A stretch of DNA of 64,000 nt, from positions 64-64,063 of the forward strand of contig CAZAEL010000001.1 of the NCBI GenBank assembly GCA_964484135.1. The letters run 5' to 3'. Position 1 is the stretch's first letter. Each line of letters begins with the position of its first letter. Positions 33,864 through 41,055 of this stretch are shown here, piece after piece. Source of the DNA: an uncultured Elusimicrobia bacterium. Lineage in GTDB: Bacteria; Elusimicrobiota; Elusimicrobia; FEN-1173. The translations under genes were made by a program, and so were the position numbers. Below the pieces are notes generated by a model. It worked only from the letters and a program-made list of their open reading frames with translations, was not told the DNA's origin and searched no databases.

Positions 33864-33970
33864 AGGTCCGCATCTCCCCGTCTTTGATTTCGCGGCCCGC
33901 CGTTCTGCGCGGCGTCGGAGCGGAATTTGAGGAAGGGATGGAGCGGATCATTCGGGAGGCGAGATCATGA
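33860..33970 (+). CDS. Small ORF (36 aa) coupled on both sides by ATGA overlaps
   Basis: The product is MKVRISPSLISRPAVLRGVGAEFEEGMERIIREARS. Its ATG overlaps the ABC transporter stop and its stop overlaps the aldolase ATG. Confidence 0.35.
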   Translation: MKVRISPSLISRPAVLRGVGAEFEEGMERIIREARS

Positions 33971-35109
33971 AAAAGAACGCGTCGGCGAAGGGCCCGGGGA
34001 ACGGCGTCCGGGGGAAAACGGCCCCGGGGTTCCGGATCCTGGAGACCACCCTGCGGGACGGCAGCTACACCATCAACTTCCAGTTCACGGCCAGCGACAC
34101 GGAGCTCATCGCCGCGGCCCTGGAGGACGCGGGCTTCGAGCTGATCGAAGTGGGGCACGGCGTGGGCCTCAACGCCTCGAATTGCGGCGCCGGCCAAGCG
34201 GCCCAGACGGACGAGGAGTACATGGCGGCCGCGGCCCGGGCCCTCAAGAAGGCCAGGTTCGGCATGTTCTGCATCCCCGGCATCGCGCGGCTGGAGGACA
34301 TCGACAAGGCGGCGGAGCACGGCATGGGGTTCATCCGCATCGGGACGGACGTGTCGCGCATGGAGGAATCCGAGCCCTTCATCGCCCGGGCCCGGAAGCA
34401 CGGCATGTACGTGACCGCCAATTTCATGAAGTCCTACGTGATGGATCCCAAGGGTTTCGCGGAGAAGGCGCGCCTGAGCCAGAAGTTCGGCTCCGAGGCG
34501 CTGTACCTGGTGGATTCGGCGGGGGGCATGTTCCCGGAGGACATCGAGGCCTATTTCAAGGCGGTGCGCGACGTCTGCGACATCCCCCTCGGGTTCCACG
34601 GCCACGACAACCTGGGCCTGGCCGTGATCAACACGCTCAAGGCCATCGAGCTGGGCGCGGCCCTGGCGGACACCTCTTTGCAGGGGTTCGGCCGCAGCGC
34701 GGGCAACGCGGCCACGGAGCTGGTGGCGGCGGCCCTCCGCCGGCAAGGGGTCCACGTGCCCATCGACCTGATGAAGGTTTTCGACGCCGGCGAGAAATTC
34801 ATAAAACCCCTCATCACCAACCGTGGTCTGGATTCCCTGGACATCGTGGCCGGCTATTCTCTTTTCCATTCCAGCTTCATGGGCGTCATCAAGAAATATT
34901 CGGACAAATACAAGATCGACCCCCGCAAGCTCATCATCGGCGTGACGCGGGAGACCCAGGTGAGCGCCCCGCCGGACCTGGTGGAGCGCATCGCCAAGGA
35001 GATCAGCGAGACCTCGGACGAGGTGTTCACGGCCCGGTACCGGCTGGACAAATACCACGGGGACGAGCAGAACCTGGAAGACAAGGTGGCCGGGAAACCC
35101 AAGAAATGA
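33967..35109 (+). CDS. HMGL-like (DRE-TIM metallolyase) aldolase, 4-hydroxy-2-oxovalerate aldolase (DmpG/MhpE) family
   Basis: The product has TLRDGSY and HGHDNLGLAV metal-binding motifs and a DmpG-like C-terminal communication domain. Confidence 0.78.
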   Translation: MKKNASAKGPGNGVRGKTAPGFRILETTLRDGSYTINFQFTASDTELIAAALEDAGFELIEVGHGVGLNASNCGAGQAAQTDEEYMAAAARALKKARFGMFCIPGIARLEDIDKAAEHGMGFIRIGTDVSRMEESEPFIARARKHGMYVTANFMKSYVMDPKGFAEKARLSQKFGSEALYLVDSAGGMFPEDIEAYFKAVRDVCDIPLGFHGHDNLGLAVINTLKAIELGAALADTSLQGFGRSAGNAATELVAAALRRQGVHVPIDLMKVFDAGEKFIKPLITNRGLDSLDIVAGYSLFHSSFMGVIKKYSDKYKIDPRKLIIGVTRETQVSAPPDLVERIAKEISETSDEVFTARYRLDKYHGDEQNLEDKVAGKPKK

Positions 35110-38936: not shown

Positions 38937-39733
38937 ACCCGGATTATACGGCCGAAGACCTGCACAGTGCCCTGGAACGGGTCGGCGTCCGGCGGGGCGA
39001 CGTGGCGTTCTCCCATGGAAACGTGGGTTACTTCGGCGTGCCCGCGGGCGGCCTGTCCCCGGACAACGTGTTCCAGACCGTGTGGGGGGCGTTCCAGGCG
39101 GCGCTGGGGCCGGAGGGGACCCTGGTCGTTCCCACCTTCACCTATTCCTTTTGCCGGGGCGAGATCTTTGACCCGGAGGAGACGCCCTCCGCCTGCGGCC
39201 TGTTCACGGAAAAGGTCCGGCGCCTGCCCGGGGCCCGGCGGTCCGAGGACCCCATCTTTTCCGTGGCCGCGGCCGGCCCTCTGGCCGAGGAGCTGACCCG
39301 GGACGCGCCGGAGGATTGCTTCGGCGACAACAGTTTTTGGGAGCGGTTCCTGAAACGGGACGGCCTTATCTGCAACCTGAATTTTGACGCTGGCTCCACA
39401 TTCCTCCATTTCGTGGAACGGCGGTTGAAGGTGCCGTACCGGTTCCTCAAGCGTTTTCCCGGTACCCTGCGCCGGCGGGGGGTGGAACGGCCGGCCGCGG
39501 GCATCCATTTCTGCCATGACCTGTCGGACCCGGACACCGAGGCCAGCTTCGAGCTGTTCGACCGGCTGGGCCGGGCCCAGGGGGTGGTGAAAACCGTTCC
39601 CGTGGGGCGTGGCTCCGTGGTGGCGTTGCGGGCGAAGGCCGCGTACGAATTGATGCAGCGTGAGATCCAAAGGTTTCCGGACCTGCTGATCGCGGCCGGC
39701 AAACGGCATTTGGCGGAGGGGAAGGCGCGATGA
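38933..39733 (+). CDS. AAC(3)-family (Antibiotic_NAT fold) N-acyltransferase, probable amino-sugar N-acylase
   Basis: The product has the RRGD...HGNVGYFG...GTLVVPTFTY pattern typical of the AAC(3)/YokD fold. Confidence 0.7.
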   Translation: MNPDYTAEDLHSALERVGVRRGDVAFSHGNVGYFGVPAGGLSPDNVFQTVWGAFQAALGPEGTLVVPTFTYSFCRGEIFDPEETPSACGLFTEKVRRLPGARRSEDPIFSVAAAGPLAEELTRDAPEDCFGDNSFWERFLKRDGLICNLNFDAGSTFLHFVERRLKVPYRFLKRFPGTLRRRGVERPAAGIHFCHDLSDPDTEASFELFDRLGRAQGVVKTVPVGRGSVVALRAKAAYELMQREIQRFPDLLIAAGKRHLAEGKAR

Positions 39734-41055
39734 CGTCCTTGAAGAAAATCGTGGAGGAGCTTTACCCTCTTCATCGCACCCTGGTGTCCGACGGCACGGA
39801 CCGGGCCCTGGAGATCATCGGCGCCCATTTCCCGGCACAGGGCGGATACGGGATGGAGACCTATCCTCCGGGGGAGCCGGCCTGGACCTGGACCCTGCCG
39901 GAGCGGTACGTGGTGCACGAGGCCTATTTGGAGATGGAGGGTGGGAAACGGGTGGTGGATTTCCGCGACAACCCCCTGCACCTGGTGTCCTACTCCTTGC
40001 CCGTGGATCAGGTGTTGAGCTGGGCGGAGCTGGCGCCCCGCCTGCATTTTTCCGAGAAACGGCCCCAAGCCATCCCCTGGGAGTTCAAATATTACGAGCG
40101 GAGCTGGGGTTTTTGCCTGCCCAAGGTCCAATACGACGCCCTGCCCCGGGACAAAAAGTACAGGGCCGTGATCCGGTCCGAGTTCGTCAAGGACCCGGCA
40201 CAAGGGCTCCGCGTCGGGCGCGGCCTGCTGGCGCCCGGCGGCGGCGCGGACCCGGCTTTCGGCGAGTTCCTGTACTGCGCCAACGTCTGCCACCCGTACC
40301 AGGTCAACGACAGCATCACGGGCGTGGCCGTGGCCCTGGAGGTGGCGCGGCGGCTGGCGGAGAAGCCCCTGCCGCCCCATTCCATGGCCGTGCGTTTCCT
40401 GTTCTGTCCGGAGACCATCGGCAGCGTGGCGTACCTGTCCCGGCACGAGGACCTGATCCCACGCTTTCGCGGCGGCCTGTACTGCGAGATGTGCGGCCAC
40501 CGCAACAGCCTGCTCCTGCAGCACACCCTGGAGGACGACCATCCCCTGGACCGGGCGGCCCGGGCCGCGCTCCGGGCCCAAGGCAAGCCCTTCCGGGAGG
40601 TCCGCTTCGCCGAAGGGCCGGTGAACGACGAGTTCGTCATGAGCAGCCCGGGCGTGGAGGTCCCGGCCATCTCCCTGTCCCGCTGGCCCTACGACGAATA
40701 CCACACCAGCGACGACAACCCGTCCATCGTCCATGAGGACATGCTGCAAGAGACAGCGGACGCGATCGAGGACATCGTCCGCGCCTTCGCCTCAGACTTC
40801 GTGCCCCGCGCCCGGGTCAAGGGGCCCATCTTCCTGAGCCGGTACGGCTTGTGGGTGGACTGGCGGGTGAACAAAAAATTGAACGCGGCCCTGGACCAGG
40901 TCCTGGCCCGGCTCAACGGGCGCCATTCGGTTTCCGAGATCGCGGAGGCCGCGGGCCTGGAATACGGCGAAACGCGGTCTTACATCGAGAAGTTCATCTC
41001 CCACGGGCTGGTGGAGGCGTTGCCCCTGCCGCCGCGTCGGGGCGGGAGCCGCTGA
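39730..41055 (+). CDS. M28-peptidase-like (DUF4910-type) protein with C-terminal winged-helix-like region
   Basis: The product has H..NDSITGVAVALEVARRL M28-like metal-site spacing. It is often paired with AAC(3)-fold genes in glycan loci. Confidence 0.5.
   Translation: MTSLKKIVEELYPLHRTLVSDGTDRALEIIGAHFPAQGGYGMETYPPGEPAWTWTLPERYVVHEAYLEMEGGKRVVDFRDNPLHLVSYSLPVDQVLSWAELAPRLHFSEKRPQAIPWEFKYYERSWGFCLPKVQYDALPRDKKYRAVIRSEFVKDPAQGLRVGRGLLAPGGGADPAFGEFLYCANVCHPYQVNDSITGVAVALEVARRLAEKPLPPHSMAVRFLFCPETIGSVAYLSRHEDLIPRFRGGLYCEMCGHRNSLLLQHTLEDDHPLDRAARAALRAQGKPFREVRFAEGPVNDEFVMSSPGVEVPAISLSRWPYDEYHTSDDNPSIVHEDMLQETADAIEDIVRAFASDFVPRARVKGPIFLSRYGLWVDWRVNKKLNAALDQVLARLNGRHSVSEIAEAAGLEYGETRSYIEKFISHGLVEALPLPPRRGGSR

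Follow-up and report, generated by a model that had tools for sequence, protein, structure and literature searches.

Eight adjoining genes in the 64,000-nucleotide stretch of Elusimicrobia DNA analysed here (the window) probably encode a route to a pyruvate-derived hydroxy or oxo acid, with which an amino sugar in a surface glycan of the nonulosonic-acid type would be N-acylated. This reading draws on the structure of the genes, the domain and fold identities of their products, the conservation of catalytic motifs, and the co-occurrence, order and fusion of the same genes across phyla. The comparative evidence supports the acyl-cassette model put forward in an initial annotation of the locus, and we found no published description of the module in the literature.

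The region 33967-41055 is filled exactly by eight plus-strand genes, as judged by GC3 frame plot and start-codon inspection (Table 1). Six of the seven junctions are overlaps of 4 to 20 nt, and the remaining one is an 11-nt gap. The same eight genes were called independently on four metagenome contigs with identical proteins. Gene calls and Pfam profile searches thus bear out the eight coupled genes, with their domains, that had been listed in the initial annotation. Terminator-like and promoter-like sites within the block were no commoner than in shuffled sequence.

Table 1. Genes of the block (g1 to g8) and glycan-related genes around it in the window.
Gene	Position	Strand	Length	Assignment	Supporting match or remark
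g1	33967-35109	+	380 aa	Class II metal-dependent pyruvate aldolase	DmpG-like but distinct subfamily
g2	35106-36653	+	515 aa	Adenylate-forming (ANL) ligase	Proposed carrier-protein loader
g3	36650-37324	+	224 aa	Two-module VOC protein	Glyoxalase/dioxygenase fold
g4	37305-37970	+	221 aa	Cyclase-family metal-dependent hydrolase/cyclase	Kynurenine formamidase / isatin hydrolase family
g5	37982-38263	+	93 aa	Small dedicated acyl/peptidyl carrier protein	
g6	38250-38936	+	228 aa	Class I SAM-dependent methyltransferase	
g7	38933-39733	+	266 aa	Antibiotic_NAT (AAC(3)-fold) N-acyltransferase	Proposed acyl-ACP:amino-sugar transferase
g8	39730-41055	+	441 aa	DUF4910/DUF2172 M28-like protein, C-terminal winged HTH	CA_C2195 / Cj1295 family
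DegT-type sugar aminotransferase + NAD-dependent epimerase/dehydratase	25982..27929	+			Pfam DegT 196 bits, Epimerase 189 bits
LIC12162-family transferase	41055..42785	+			Directly downstream of cassette; NCBIfam TIGR04331 435 bits, cutoff 225
NeuB-family ulosonic acid synthase	43495-44310	+			Pfam NeuB 246 bits; no SAF domain
CMP-sugar cytidylyltransferase	44315-45037	+			Pfam CTP_transf_3 82 bits
Cytidylyltransferase fused to D-2-hydroxyacid dehydrogenase	53630..55465	+			Pfam 2-Hacid_dh_C 180 bits

For comparison, 80 genome loci carrying the aldolase were collected from bacteria and archaea, and module counts were taken on the 37 that had adequate flanks and a ligase. Carriers include Methanobacterium ferruginis, Methylocystis sp. 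B8 and Bradyrhizobium sp. U531. The cyclase gene was present in all 37 loci, AAC(3) in 32/37, DUF4910 in 28/37, and VOC and ACP in 24/37 each. At least one gene for NeuB, a CMP-transferase, DegT or an epimerase was found in 26 of the 37, with NeuB itself within 10 kb in only 19. Synteny divides the genes into two sub-blocks, aldolase-ligase-VOC and cyclase-ACP-AAC(3)-DUF4910. The co-occurrence of the block in other genomes, which was looked for and found across phyla, indicates a conserved module recurring in many bacterial and archaeal phyla and no chance neighbourhood.

The ligase g2 matches Pfam AMP-binding (264 bits) and AMP-binding_C (56 bits). Its nearest solved relatives are malonyl-CoA synthetase (4fuq, 180 bits), oxalate-CoA ligase (5ie0, 174 bits) and the LgrA A-domain (167 bits), and these relatives activate small polar acids. 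The ligase gene adjoins the aldolase gene in 49/55 loci, and an 830-aa aldolase-ligase fusion protein occurs on at least 48 contigs (fused in P0277 and P0280), one of which carries a Pse-type cluster with the gene order of the window. Adjacency and fusion together support the proposed coupling of aldolase to ligase. The carrier g5 matches Pfam PP-binding (29.7 bits, cutoff 20.8) and is weakly similar to the AmcB and DltC carrier models, well under the DltC cutoffs. Its phosphopantetheine motif, D42-S43-L44, is kept in 32/35 homologs and 11 related loci have a phosphopantetheinyl transferase gene beside the cassette, in line with the earlier suggestion of a dedicated small ACP. As proposed for g2 and g5, a free-standing ANL ligase of the DltA/DltC D-alanyl system works with its own small carrier to decorate a surface polymer, but the substrate, acceptor and transferase (MBOAT/DltD as against an AAC(3) fold) are different.

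The same machinery could instead transfer an amino acid. The aldol product would be transaminated to a gamma-hydroxy-alpha-amino acid, e.g. 4-hydroxynorvaline or homoserine, and loaded by g2, acting like DltA or an NRPS A-domain, onto a DltC-like carrier; the VOC protein would epimerise it, the cyclase-family enzyme would lactonise or cyclise it, and g7 would aminoacylate the sugar amine. A class I/II aminotransferase is embedded in about ten related cassettes (e.g. L007/L016, L009, L032, L038, L047 and L054) and, at least for these, points to an amino-acyl product. Scores of the embedded enzymes are similar for Asp aminotransferase and for GntC, a PLP enzyme with a gamma-hydroxy amino acid as substrate, and lie under cutoff for both. 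The weak DltC match of g5, the 195 bits of g2 against the amino-acid adenylation domain model and the presence of the LgrA A-domain among its top relatives also fit. However, that g2 score lies under the model's cutoff of 317, with malonyl- and oxalyl-CoA ligases as the best solved relatives, and most cassettes, including that of the window, lack an embedded aminotransferase. At 50894 the window does have a class I/II aminotransferase, but it shares only 22% identity with the cassette-embedded type. We consider an amino acid an unlikely cargo, and a hydroxy or oxo acid remains our preferred one.

The aldolase g1 matches Pfam HMGL-like (147 bits) and, weakly, DmpG_comm (23.2 bits, cutoff 27). 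It scores 304.9 on NCBIfam PRK08195 (cutoff 229) but 277.1 on the equivalog TIGR03217, under the cutoff of 286. As in the DmpG/DmpF, BphI/BphJ and HsaF/HsaG complexes (1nvm, 4jn6, 4lrs, 8ih7), an HMGL-like TIM barrel is followed by a C-terminal communication-type domain. Structure scores run from 165 bits (DmpG, 1nvm) to 194 bits (8ih7), and the shared Asp/His/His metal site and Arg are retained as R30, D31, H211 and H213. By contrast, Tyr34 aligns to DmpG His21 and His301 to DmpG Tyr291, a swap found in 76/76 orthologs. Its sequence thus places g1 in a subfamily distinct from DmpG, and because of the catalytic His/Tyr swap, aldolase chemistry is not simply transferable from DmpG or BphI. DmpG, BphI and HsaF serve meta-cleavage catabolism with an acylating dehydrogenase partner, whereas g1 lies in biosynthetic glycan loci, adjacent or fused to an ANL ligase. 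A scan of genes between 18.6 and 63 kb of the window revealed no DmpF-type dehydrogenase; the reported lack of a partner dehydrogenase holds there and in the 80 related loci.

Nonulosonic acids also belong to the 4-hydroxy-2-oxo acids, and g1 could therefore act on the sugar backbone, making or cleaving a 3-deoxy-2-ulosonic acid from pyruvate and an amino-sugar aldehyde and leaving some other acid to the ligase, ACP and AAC(3) protein. Several loci have the aldolase directly after NeuB. Where the ligase is missing, the aldolase lies among DegT and WbpB/D-like genes, and NeuB is found within 10 kb in none of 10 such loci. Against this, the 49/55 adjacency and the fusion on at least 48 contigs tie the aldolase product to carboxylate activation, and the co-presence of NeuB in the window and in 19/37 loci would make a second synthase redundant. 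In the ligase-less context, next to WbpB/E/D-like amino-sugar genes, the same aldolase subfamily has an ATP-grasp amide ligase for a partner. This conserved partner again suggests use of a carboxylic acid, and we judge action on the backbone to be improbable. Synthesis of the acyl group is thus the role we favour for g1.

The remaining proteins would tailor and transfer this acyl group. The VOC protein g3 has a weak Pfam Glyoxalase match (26.7 bits, cutoff 20.6), but its AlphaFold model (pLDDT 94.2) was placed by Foldseek among two-module VOC proteins, with matches to GLOD4 (TM 0.60-0.66), maize glyoxalase I (E=1e-9), hydroxymandelate synthase and HPPD. This confirms its VOC identity as a fold, at the level of the model. 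E67 and E209 are invariant and position 7 is H or Q. The family comprises 454 representative clusters at E<=1e-30. The VOC gene adjoins the ligase gene in 29/34 loci. The cyclase-family protein g4 (Pfam Cyclase, 118.7 bits) has 1r61 (75 bits), KynB (58 bits) and isatin hydrolase (55 bits) as solved relatives and a motif, H50-x-G-T-H54-x-D56-x-P-x-H60, kept in 51 homologs. Its gene is the one linked most tightly to the carrier, adjoining the ACP gene in 30/33 loci and lying on the opposite strand in none. The methyltransferase g6 matches Methyltransf_11 (64.6 bits) and Methyltransf_25 (62.4 bits); in a gene-family census of 58 loci its type occurred in 24 and a distinct methyltransferase of about 390 aa in 14.

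The transferase g7 matches Pfam Antibiotic_NAT (116.8 bits) but falls far under the resistance-family cutoffs (67.8 against 420 and 65 against 270). It shares its Pfam domain and catalytic His/Glu pair with the AAC(3) aminoglycoside N-acetyltransferases and FrbF, His159 and Glu162 being at least 90% conserved in 35 homologs, and like AAC(3) enzymes would N-acylate an amine of a sugar-like substrate. Unlike theirs, its gene is obligately linked to that of a carrier protein, and scores against solved members reach only 48 bits (AAC(3)-IVa) and 42 bits (FrbF). Its gene lies on the strand of the ACP gene in 31/31 loci and adjoins it in 21/31. Because of this linkage the donor is probably acyl-ACP and not acetyl-CoA.

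Around the block lies a long glycan locus with genes for DegT, epimerases, NeuB, CMP-transferase, the LIC12162-family transferase (PF27859 in the precomputed Pfam table), glycosyltransferases and many methyltransferases; GT8, ABC exporter and GT2 genes are also among the neighbours. Upstream, DegT starts at 25982, an epimerase at 26988 and a SIS+CBS gene at 27937, and the DegT aminotransferase and epimerase would furnish the amino-sugar acceptor. The acceptor may be no classical Pse or Leg, since the window NeuB is short and has no SAF domain and the SIS+CBS gene is KpsF-like. The cytidylyltransferase-dehydrogenase fusion scores 225 bits as PGDH-like and 195 bits as glyoxylate reductase in NCBIfam, both under cutoff. 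It is a candidate 2-oxo-acid reductase and possible accessory gene of uncertain membership in the pathway, and its dehydrogenase domain has no homolog among the 80 related loci. A non-glycan block (a catabolic meta-cleavage remnant, an NRPS-independent small-molecule pathway, or aminoglycoside resistance with hitch-hiking neighbours) matches the automatic names '4-hydroxy-2-oxovalerate aldolase' for g1 and 'aminoglycoside 3-N-acetyltransferase' for g7 but is most improbable, given that DmpF, hydratase or catabolic gene families are not recurrent around the aldolase in the 80 loci, no orthologous cassette was seen in an aromatic-degradation operon among the loci surveyed, g1 has no DmpG His/Tyr arrangement, g7 reaches 65-68 bits against resistance cutoffs of 270-420, and the adjoining NeuB, CMP-transferase, DegT or epimerase genes are kept across phyla.

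The last protein of the block, g8, combines DUF4910 (164 bits), DUF2172 (96 bits) and Peptidase_M28 (40 bits) Pfam matches with a C-terminal HTH. Residues H188, E228, D300, E301, H325 and D329 are at least 90% conserved in 44 homologs, and by its sequence g8 could be either an amidohydrolase or an adaptor. The initial annotation had placed this M28-like protein in the cassette, where it stays, but gave it no role. The same three-part architecture is found in CA_C2195 of Clostridium acetobutylicum (3k9t; DUF4910/DUF2172/HTH_47 family), which g8 matches with 163 bits over 346 residues. Neighbourhoods of the CA_C2195 type contain NeuB, nucleotidyltransferase, ACP and 'aminosugar N-acetyltransferase' genes, and 229 genomes link DUF4910 to NeuB, to ACP and to the 'aminosugar N-acetyltransferase' (PMC4000134). 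The partnership with aldolase, ligase or cyclase seen in the cassette is absent from that account (PMC4000134).

Like g8 and g7, Cj1295 and the N-acetyltransferase Cj1296/7 of Campylobacter jejuni set a DUF4910/M28-like protein beside an N-acyltransferase in a nonulosonic-acid locus, a likeness by family and description. The ACP Cj1299 and methyltransferase Cj1300 presumably lie near them. Cj1295 is required for 5-N-(2,3-di-O-methylglyceroyl) pseudaminic acid, in which an O-methylated hydroxy-acyl group takes the place of N-acetyl, and Hitchen et al. proposed that it takes off the N-acetyl group (PMC3068675); in 2026 it was termed a 'putative transferase' (PMC13130089). By analogy, Cj1295 offers a genetic precedent for N-acylation by an AAC(3)-like and DUF4910 tail (PMC3068675). 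The C. jejuni acid is, however, a C3 glycerate derivative, and genes for a DmpG-like aldolase, an ANL ligase, a VOC protein and a cyclase are all missing from the C. jejuni locus. The FlaB glycan of Treponema denticola carries a 2-methoxy-4,5,6-trihydroxy-hexanoyl nonulosonic acid, i.e. a Pse-type sugar bearing a polyhydroxy acyl group that is 3-deoxy and O-methylated (PMC13439194). The skeleton of this acyl group is that of a pyruvate-glyceraldehyde adduct after reduction and O-methylation of the 2-oxo group, and fits the output of such an aldol reaction, a methyltransferase and an N-acyltransferase. The likeness is one of chemistry alone: no Treponema proteins were among the top matches listed for the cassette searches, and the T. 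denticola group would need a 2-oxo reductase, which the cassette does not have. No reductase is conserved in the module, and thus a 2-hydroxy or 2-methoxy product would need an outside enzyme.

From these comparisons we infer each chemical step, the direction in which the aldolase runs and the aldehyde it uses, as well as the acceptor and end product. As a divalent-metal class II aldolase, g1 would join pyruvate to an aldehyde, yielding a 4-hydroxy-2-oxo acid with 4 to 6 carbons. As no reductase is conserved and about ten cassettes hold an aminotransferase, the acid may be reduced or transaminated by further enzymes; the route proposed as self-contained thus stands as a coupled module, but its self-containment is doubtful. 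The acid or its derivative would be adenylated by g2 and bound as a thioester to the phosphopantetheine arm on Ser43 of g5, where g3, g4 and g6 would tailor the tethered acyl group. Next, g7 would take the finished group off the carrier and attach it to a free amine of a nucleotide-linked diamino sugar or ulosonic acid, assisted by g8, which may strip a pre-existing N-acetyl to free the amine or act as a non-catalytic adaptor. In the loci with an ATP-grasp ligase, that pairing would give the same acid a second way of forming an amide.

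Raw ORF lists for the window (62-71% G+C) were crowded by spurious frames. A GC3 frame plot showed plus-strand coding unbroken from 33967 to 41055 and split over eight frames, and gene starts were set by start-codon inspection. Six of the seven junctions between g1 and g8 are overlaps of 4-20 nt, the remaining one being an 11-nt gap. The same eight genes were obtained in independent calls on four metagenome contigs carrying identical proteins. The frame plot, start codons and independent calls thus bear out the eight coupled genes proposed in the initial annotation, and Pfam and NCBIfam confirmed all eight of its domain assignments, the weakest being VOC for g3 (26.7 bits). 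Shuffled sequence gave terminator-like and promoter-like motifs at least as often as the block did.

Genes of the cassette and features of the surrounding locus in the window.
Feature	Position	Strand	Remark
g1, aldolase (ALD)	33967-35109	+	cassette
g2, AMP-ligase (LIG)	35106-36653	+	cassette
g3, VOC	36650-37324	+	cassette
g4, cyclase-family (CYC)	37305-37970	+	cassette
g5, carrier protein (ACP)	37982-38263	+	cassette
g6, SAM methyltransferase	38250-38936	+	cassette
g7, AAC(3)-fold (AAC)	38933-39733	+	cassette
g8, DUF4910, M28-like	39730-41055	+	cassette
DegT aminotransferase			upstream of cassette
NAD-dependent epimerase/dehydratases, at least two			upstream of cassette
GT8			upstream of cassette
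ABC exporter			upstream of cassette
KpsF-like SIS+CBS protein, arabinose-5-phosphate isomerase type	27937-29010		upstream of cassette
NeuB-family synthase, short (271 aa, no SAF domain)	43495-44310		downstream of cassette
LIC12162-family transferase			downstream of cassette; TIGR04331 435 bits vs cutoff 225
GT2			downstream of cassette
CMP-sugar cytidylyltransferase			downstream of cassette
Asn-synthase-like amidotransferase			downstream of cassette
GT4 glycosyltransferases, two			downstream of cassette
Heparinase II/III-like protein	56879-58840		adjoins the Asn-synthase-like amidotransferase and two GT4 glycosyltransferases
SAM methyltransferases (g6 among them)	30299-31276, 38250-38936, 45034-46113, 46110-46943, 48932-49864, 52890-53633		
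Fusion (611 aa): PseF/KdsB-like cytidylyltransferase N-domain + D-2-hydroxyacid dehydrogenase	53630-55465		
ORF, 422 aa	29022-30290	+	no Pfam match; no homolog among 80 related loci
ORF, 659 aa	46950-48929	+	no Pfam match; no homolog among 80 related loci
ORF, 312 aa	49962-50900	+	no Pfam match; no homolog among 80 related loci

Homologs of g1 at 60-74% identity were found in many phyla. With an alignment of 32 of them we retrieved 80 genomic loci from bacteria and archaea, along with 10-kb flanks; cultured organisms represented are Methylocystis sp. B8, Bradyrhizobium sp. U531 and Methanobacterium ferruginis, among others. Thalassotalea insulae and Desulfonauticus submarinus are further cultured carriers. 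The window proteins were searched against these loci by tblastn. The ligase was present in 37 of the 47 loci with adequate flanks, and all 37 also contained the cyclase. The AAC(3)-like protein was found in 32/37, DUF4910 in 28/37 and the g6-type methyltransferase in 18/37, whilst VOC and ACP each reached 24/37, counts limited by tblastn sensitivity. NeuB lay within 10 kb in 19 of these 37 loci, and 26 carried any of NeuB, CMP-transferase, DegT or epimerase. When all ORFs near the aldolase were clustered without preselection, the same families emerged, and no oxidoreductase proved to be conserved. The clustering also gave four further families: an ACPS-type PPTase (PF01648, 58 bits) adjoining the cassette in 11 loci, a methyltransferase of approximately 390 aa in 14 loci, a class I/II aminotransferase in 11 loci, and acetamidino-type genes (WbuX, HisH/HisF-like and AsnB-like).

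Gene order was also conserved. In loci with both genes, aldolase and ligase were adjacent in 49/55 (same strand in 55/55), ligase and VOC in 29/34 (34/34), cyclase and ACP in 30/33 (33/33), ACP and AAC in 21/31 (31/31), and AAC and DUF4910 in 18/33 (32/33). This adjacency defines two sub-blocks, ALD-LIG-VOC and CYC-ACP-AAC-DUF4910, which are inverted relative to one another in five loci. At least 48 metagenome contigs encode aldolase and ligase as one fused protein of 830 aa (P0277, at L091:10001-12493, and P0280). The fetched contig L091 is a Pse-type cluster in which PseB-like and PseC-like genes precede the fusion, VOC, cyclase, ACP, methyltransferase, AAC(3) and DUF4910, an order identical to that of the window, followed by a cytidylyltransferase, HisH/HisF and a PseG/H-like fusion. 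A small UPF0175/DUF3368 pair, toxin-antitoxin-like, sits between DUF4910 and the cytidylyltransferase on this contig. B12-binding radical SAM enzymes were seen near the cassette in seven loci (e.g. L044:5297-6922) and aldo/keto reductases in six; these genes possibly provide lineage-specific extra tailoring, such as C-methylation or reduction.

The g1 protein matched PF00682 (HMGL-like TIM barrel) at 147 bits and, weakly, PF07836 (DmpG communication domain; 23.2 bits vs cutoff 27). It passed the NCBIfam subfamily model PRK08195 (304.9 vs cutoff 229) but failed the equivalog TIGR03217 (277.1 bits vs 286), indicating a predicted DmpG relative outside the DmpG equivalog. The DmpG metal ligands Asp18, His200 and His202, together with Arg17, correspond to D31, H211, H213 and R30 of g1, which were invariant in 76 orthologs. 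By contrast, g1 carries Tyr34 ('TLRDGSY') and His301 ('LFHSSF') where the DmpG type has His ('TLRDGSH') and Tyr ('GVYSSF'), and all four solved enzymes (8ih7, 4lrs, 1nvm and 4jn6) show the His/Tyr order. In BphI, the catalytic His and Tyr act as base and acid. The Tyr34/His301 swap was present in 76/76 extractable orthologs, in ligase and ATP-grasp contexts alike. No DmpF-type acylating acetaldehyde dehydrogenase was found among the window genes between 18.6 and 63 kb or as a gene family in the census of 80 loci, and the description of an aldolase lacking its usual partner dehydrogenase therefore holds in both. Formation of 5-oxoproline-type acyl groups by a pyruvate-dimer route was considered and rejected, as DmpG-type enzymes take aldehyde and not ketone acceptors.

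The aldolase also occurs in a second context. In approximately 11 ligase-less loci (among them L077:9842-12070, L062:3980-5170 and L086:6921-8703; also L049, L072, L079 and L082), it is about 700-740 aa long, its C-terminus being extended by a Rossmann-like domain of some 350 aa with no Pfam match. We looked for a relative of this extension of the ~740-aa aldolases among the window proteins and found no similarity. The aldolase is preceded by genes for DegT, an LbH acetyltransferase and a GFO/IDH/MocA oxidoreductase (WbpB/E/D-like), and a gene for an ATP-grasp protein similar to L-amino-acid ligases comes after it. No ligase, cyclase, AAC(3) or nearby NeuB was present in these loci. One aldolase subfamily is thus associated with two amide-forming chemistries, both beside amino-sugar genes. 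Of the indirect evidence, this double pairing speaks most strongly for an aldolase that supplies a carboxylic acid bound for an amide bond.

We also examined the proteins predicted to load and carry the acid. The closest solved relatives of g2 are malonyl-CoA synthetase and oxalate-CoA ligase. The g5 protein matched PF00550 at 29.7 bits (cutoff 20.8), and its phosphopantetheinylation site (D42-S43-L44) was kept in 32/35 homologs; S43 is in place, and the missing serine that would have spoken against the initial annotation was not seen. No PPTase gene was found in the scanned region of the window.

The AlphaFold model of g3 (pLDDT 94.2) contains two pairs of beta-alpha-beta-beta-beta modules. 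Foldseek matched it to two-module VOC proteins, with GLOD4 (TM 0.60-0.66) ahead of glyoxalase I, hydroxymandelate synthase (HMS) and HPPD, all at probability 1.00. The predicted model thus confirms a VOC fold. Residues E67 and E209 are conserved and position 7 holds H or Q; we saw no conserved His where the second module begins. A word-indexed search returned 34 matches, but a full profile search gave 454 representative clusters at E<=1e-30, so g3 does not belong to a tiny family. The cassette is present in the strict anaerobes Methanobacterium, Methanoregula, Smithella and Desulfarculus, and an O2-dependent oxidative decarboxylation of the HPPD or HMS kind by g3 is therefore unlikely.

In g4, the metal motif HxGTHxDxPxH (H50, H54, D56 and H60) was kept in 51 homologs and is shared with kynurenine formamidase and isatin hydrolase, but the protein falls below the arylformamidase equivalog TIGR03035 (82.6 bits vs cutoff 223). 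The near-obligate adjacency of cyclase and ACP genes argues that g4 would act on a carrier-bound intermediate. The g7 protein matched PF02522 (Antibiotic_NAT) at 116.8 bits but was far under the cutoffs of the resistance families (AAC_3_IV, 67.8 vs 420; AAC_3, 65 vs 270). Its catalytic-pair residues His159, which aligns with the His mutated in 6mn4, and Glu162 are at least 90% conserved. The g8 protein matched PF16254 (DUF4910, 164 bits) and PF09940 (the DUF2172 insert, 96 bits), contains a C-terminal winged HTH at residues 391-430, and resembles CA_C2195 (3k9t) at 163 bits. H188, E228 and H325 are conserved at positions like those of M28 ligands, but g8 reads 'PET' where M28 peptidases carry 'EE'. 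According to PMC4000134, the pattern matches no known peptidase site.

Taken together, the best-supported reading of g1-g8 is an acyl-transfer pathway, each chemical step of which we infer. In this pathway, g1 would condense pyruvate and an aldehyde to a 4-hydroxy-2-oxo acid, which g2 would adenylate and load onto holo-g5; enzymes that are not conserved may first reduce or transaminate the acid. The g3, g4 and g6 proteins would modify the tethered acyl group and g7 would move it onto a sugar amine, with g8 serving in acceptor deacetylation or as an adaptor. Strong comparative evidence supports the initial annotation, which had the cassette build an unusual acyl group, load it onto the ACP and transfer it to an amino sugar.

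The main alternative concerns the product. A class I/II aminotransferase is embedded in about 10 cassettes, which suggests that the transferred group is a gamma-hydroxy amino-acyl in aminotransferase-bearing loci. The aldolase product, once transaminated, would be a gamma-hydroxy amino acid. GntC is a PLP-dependent cyclodehydratase acting on gamma-hydroxy-L-arginine, and two of the embedded enzymes (L054:13291-14484 and L007:11224-12255) scored nearly as high against GntC as against aspartate aminotransferase, all below cutoff. The class I/II aminotransferase at 50894 of the window was rejected as their counterpart (22% identity, partial alignment). A less likely reading has the aldolase act on the backbone of the sugar. 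A block unrelated to glycans is also less likely; ORF clustering around the aldolase gave no catabolic family.

The cassette of the window lies in a long plus-strand glycan locus that starts at about 25.9 kb and runs past 63 kb. The locus has a KpsF-like protein and a short NeuB, and no PseG/PseH-type or NeuC-type gene was seen in the window, so its ulosonic acid may not be classical pseudaminic or legionaminic acid. The number of SAM methyltransferases in the locus is unusually high, at least six or seven, which suggests a heavily methylated glycan. The dehydrogenase part of the 611-aa fusion resembles phosphoglycerate dehydrogenase or glyoxylate reductase and could be a candidate 2-oxo acid reductase. 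As this domain had no homolog in the 80 loci, the fusion was rejected as a 2-oxo reductase that is conserved with the module. The fetched locus L033 encodes, right at its flank edge, an N-domain 59% identical to that of the fusion.

Parts of the cassette have precedents. Das et al. solved the structure of CA_C2195, linked DUF4910 genes to NeuB, a nucleotidyltransferase, ACP and an 'aminosugar N-acetyltransferase' in 229 genomes, and suggested that the proteins help to make modified sugars in a role other than that of a peptidase (PMC4000134). In C. jejuni, the DUF4910-family protein Cj1295 is needed for 5-N-(2,3-di-O-methylglyceroyl) pseudaminic acid; Hitchen et al. proposed that it strips the N-acetyl group, making way for another acyl group, and the neighbouring Cj1296/7 is an N-acetyltransferase (PMC3068675). 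In 2026, Cj1295 was still a 'putative transferase' (PMC13130089). The cassette tail (ACP, methyltransferase, AAC(3)-like and DUF4910) belongs to a kind of which Campylobacter genetics has given a first glimpse. Both the head (aldolase with the swapped dyad, ligase, VOC and cyclase) and the full eight-gene module appear undescribed. Our literature search found no paper pairing 'oxovalerate aldolase' with pseudaminic or nonulosonic acids, or Cj1296 with an acyl carrier protein. The acyl skeleton of T. denticola (2-methoxy-4,5,6-trihydroxy-hexanoyl) corresponds to pyruvate plus glyceraldehyde after C2 reduction and O-methylation. When a Spirochaetia aldolase served as the query for homologs, no named Treponema was among the 120 best matches, and searches for gene annotations around TDE0960 (T. 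denticola) gave nothing useful.

Nonulosonic acids occur on flagella, S-layers, capsules and LPS, and their very diverse N-acyl groups affect immune recognition, phage binding and filament assembly. To our knowledge, almost none of the enzymes that make or attach the unusual N-acyl groups have been identified. The cassette offers a concrete candidate route of eight proteins, and hundreds of genomes carry it, those of methanogens, Alphaproteobacteria and candidate phyla among them. This route would assign function to three orphan groups, the DUF4910/Cj1295 family, the g3 VOC subfamily and a cyclase subfamily, and would reveal what the AAC(3) resistance fold does in nature. Its aldolase would be a new subfamily, possibly useful for making chiral 4-hydroxy-2-oxo acids. 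A more specific proposal, tentative and in our judgement somewhat likelier to be wrong than right together with its three consequences, is that g1 represents a biosynthetic branch of the class II pyruvate aldolases that had so far gone unrecognised, marked by the swapped Tyr/His and making a KDG-like 3-deoxy-2-keto acid that is carried by the ACP and transferred by the AAC(3) protein to nonulosonic-acid amines. If so, the Antibiotic_NAT fold would have served natively and ancestrally in acyl-ACP-dependent sugar N-acylation, the cassette would hold the genes behind nonulosonic acids of the T. denticola type (2-methoxy-polyhydroxy-acyl), and the surfaces of many bacteria and archaea would bear decorations of this sort.
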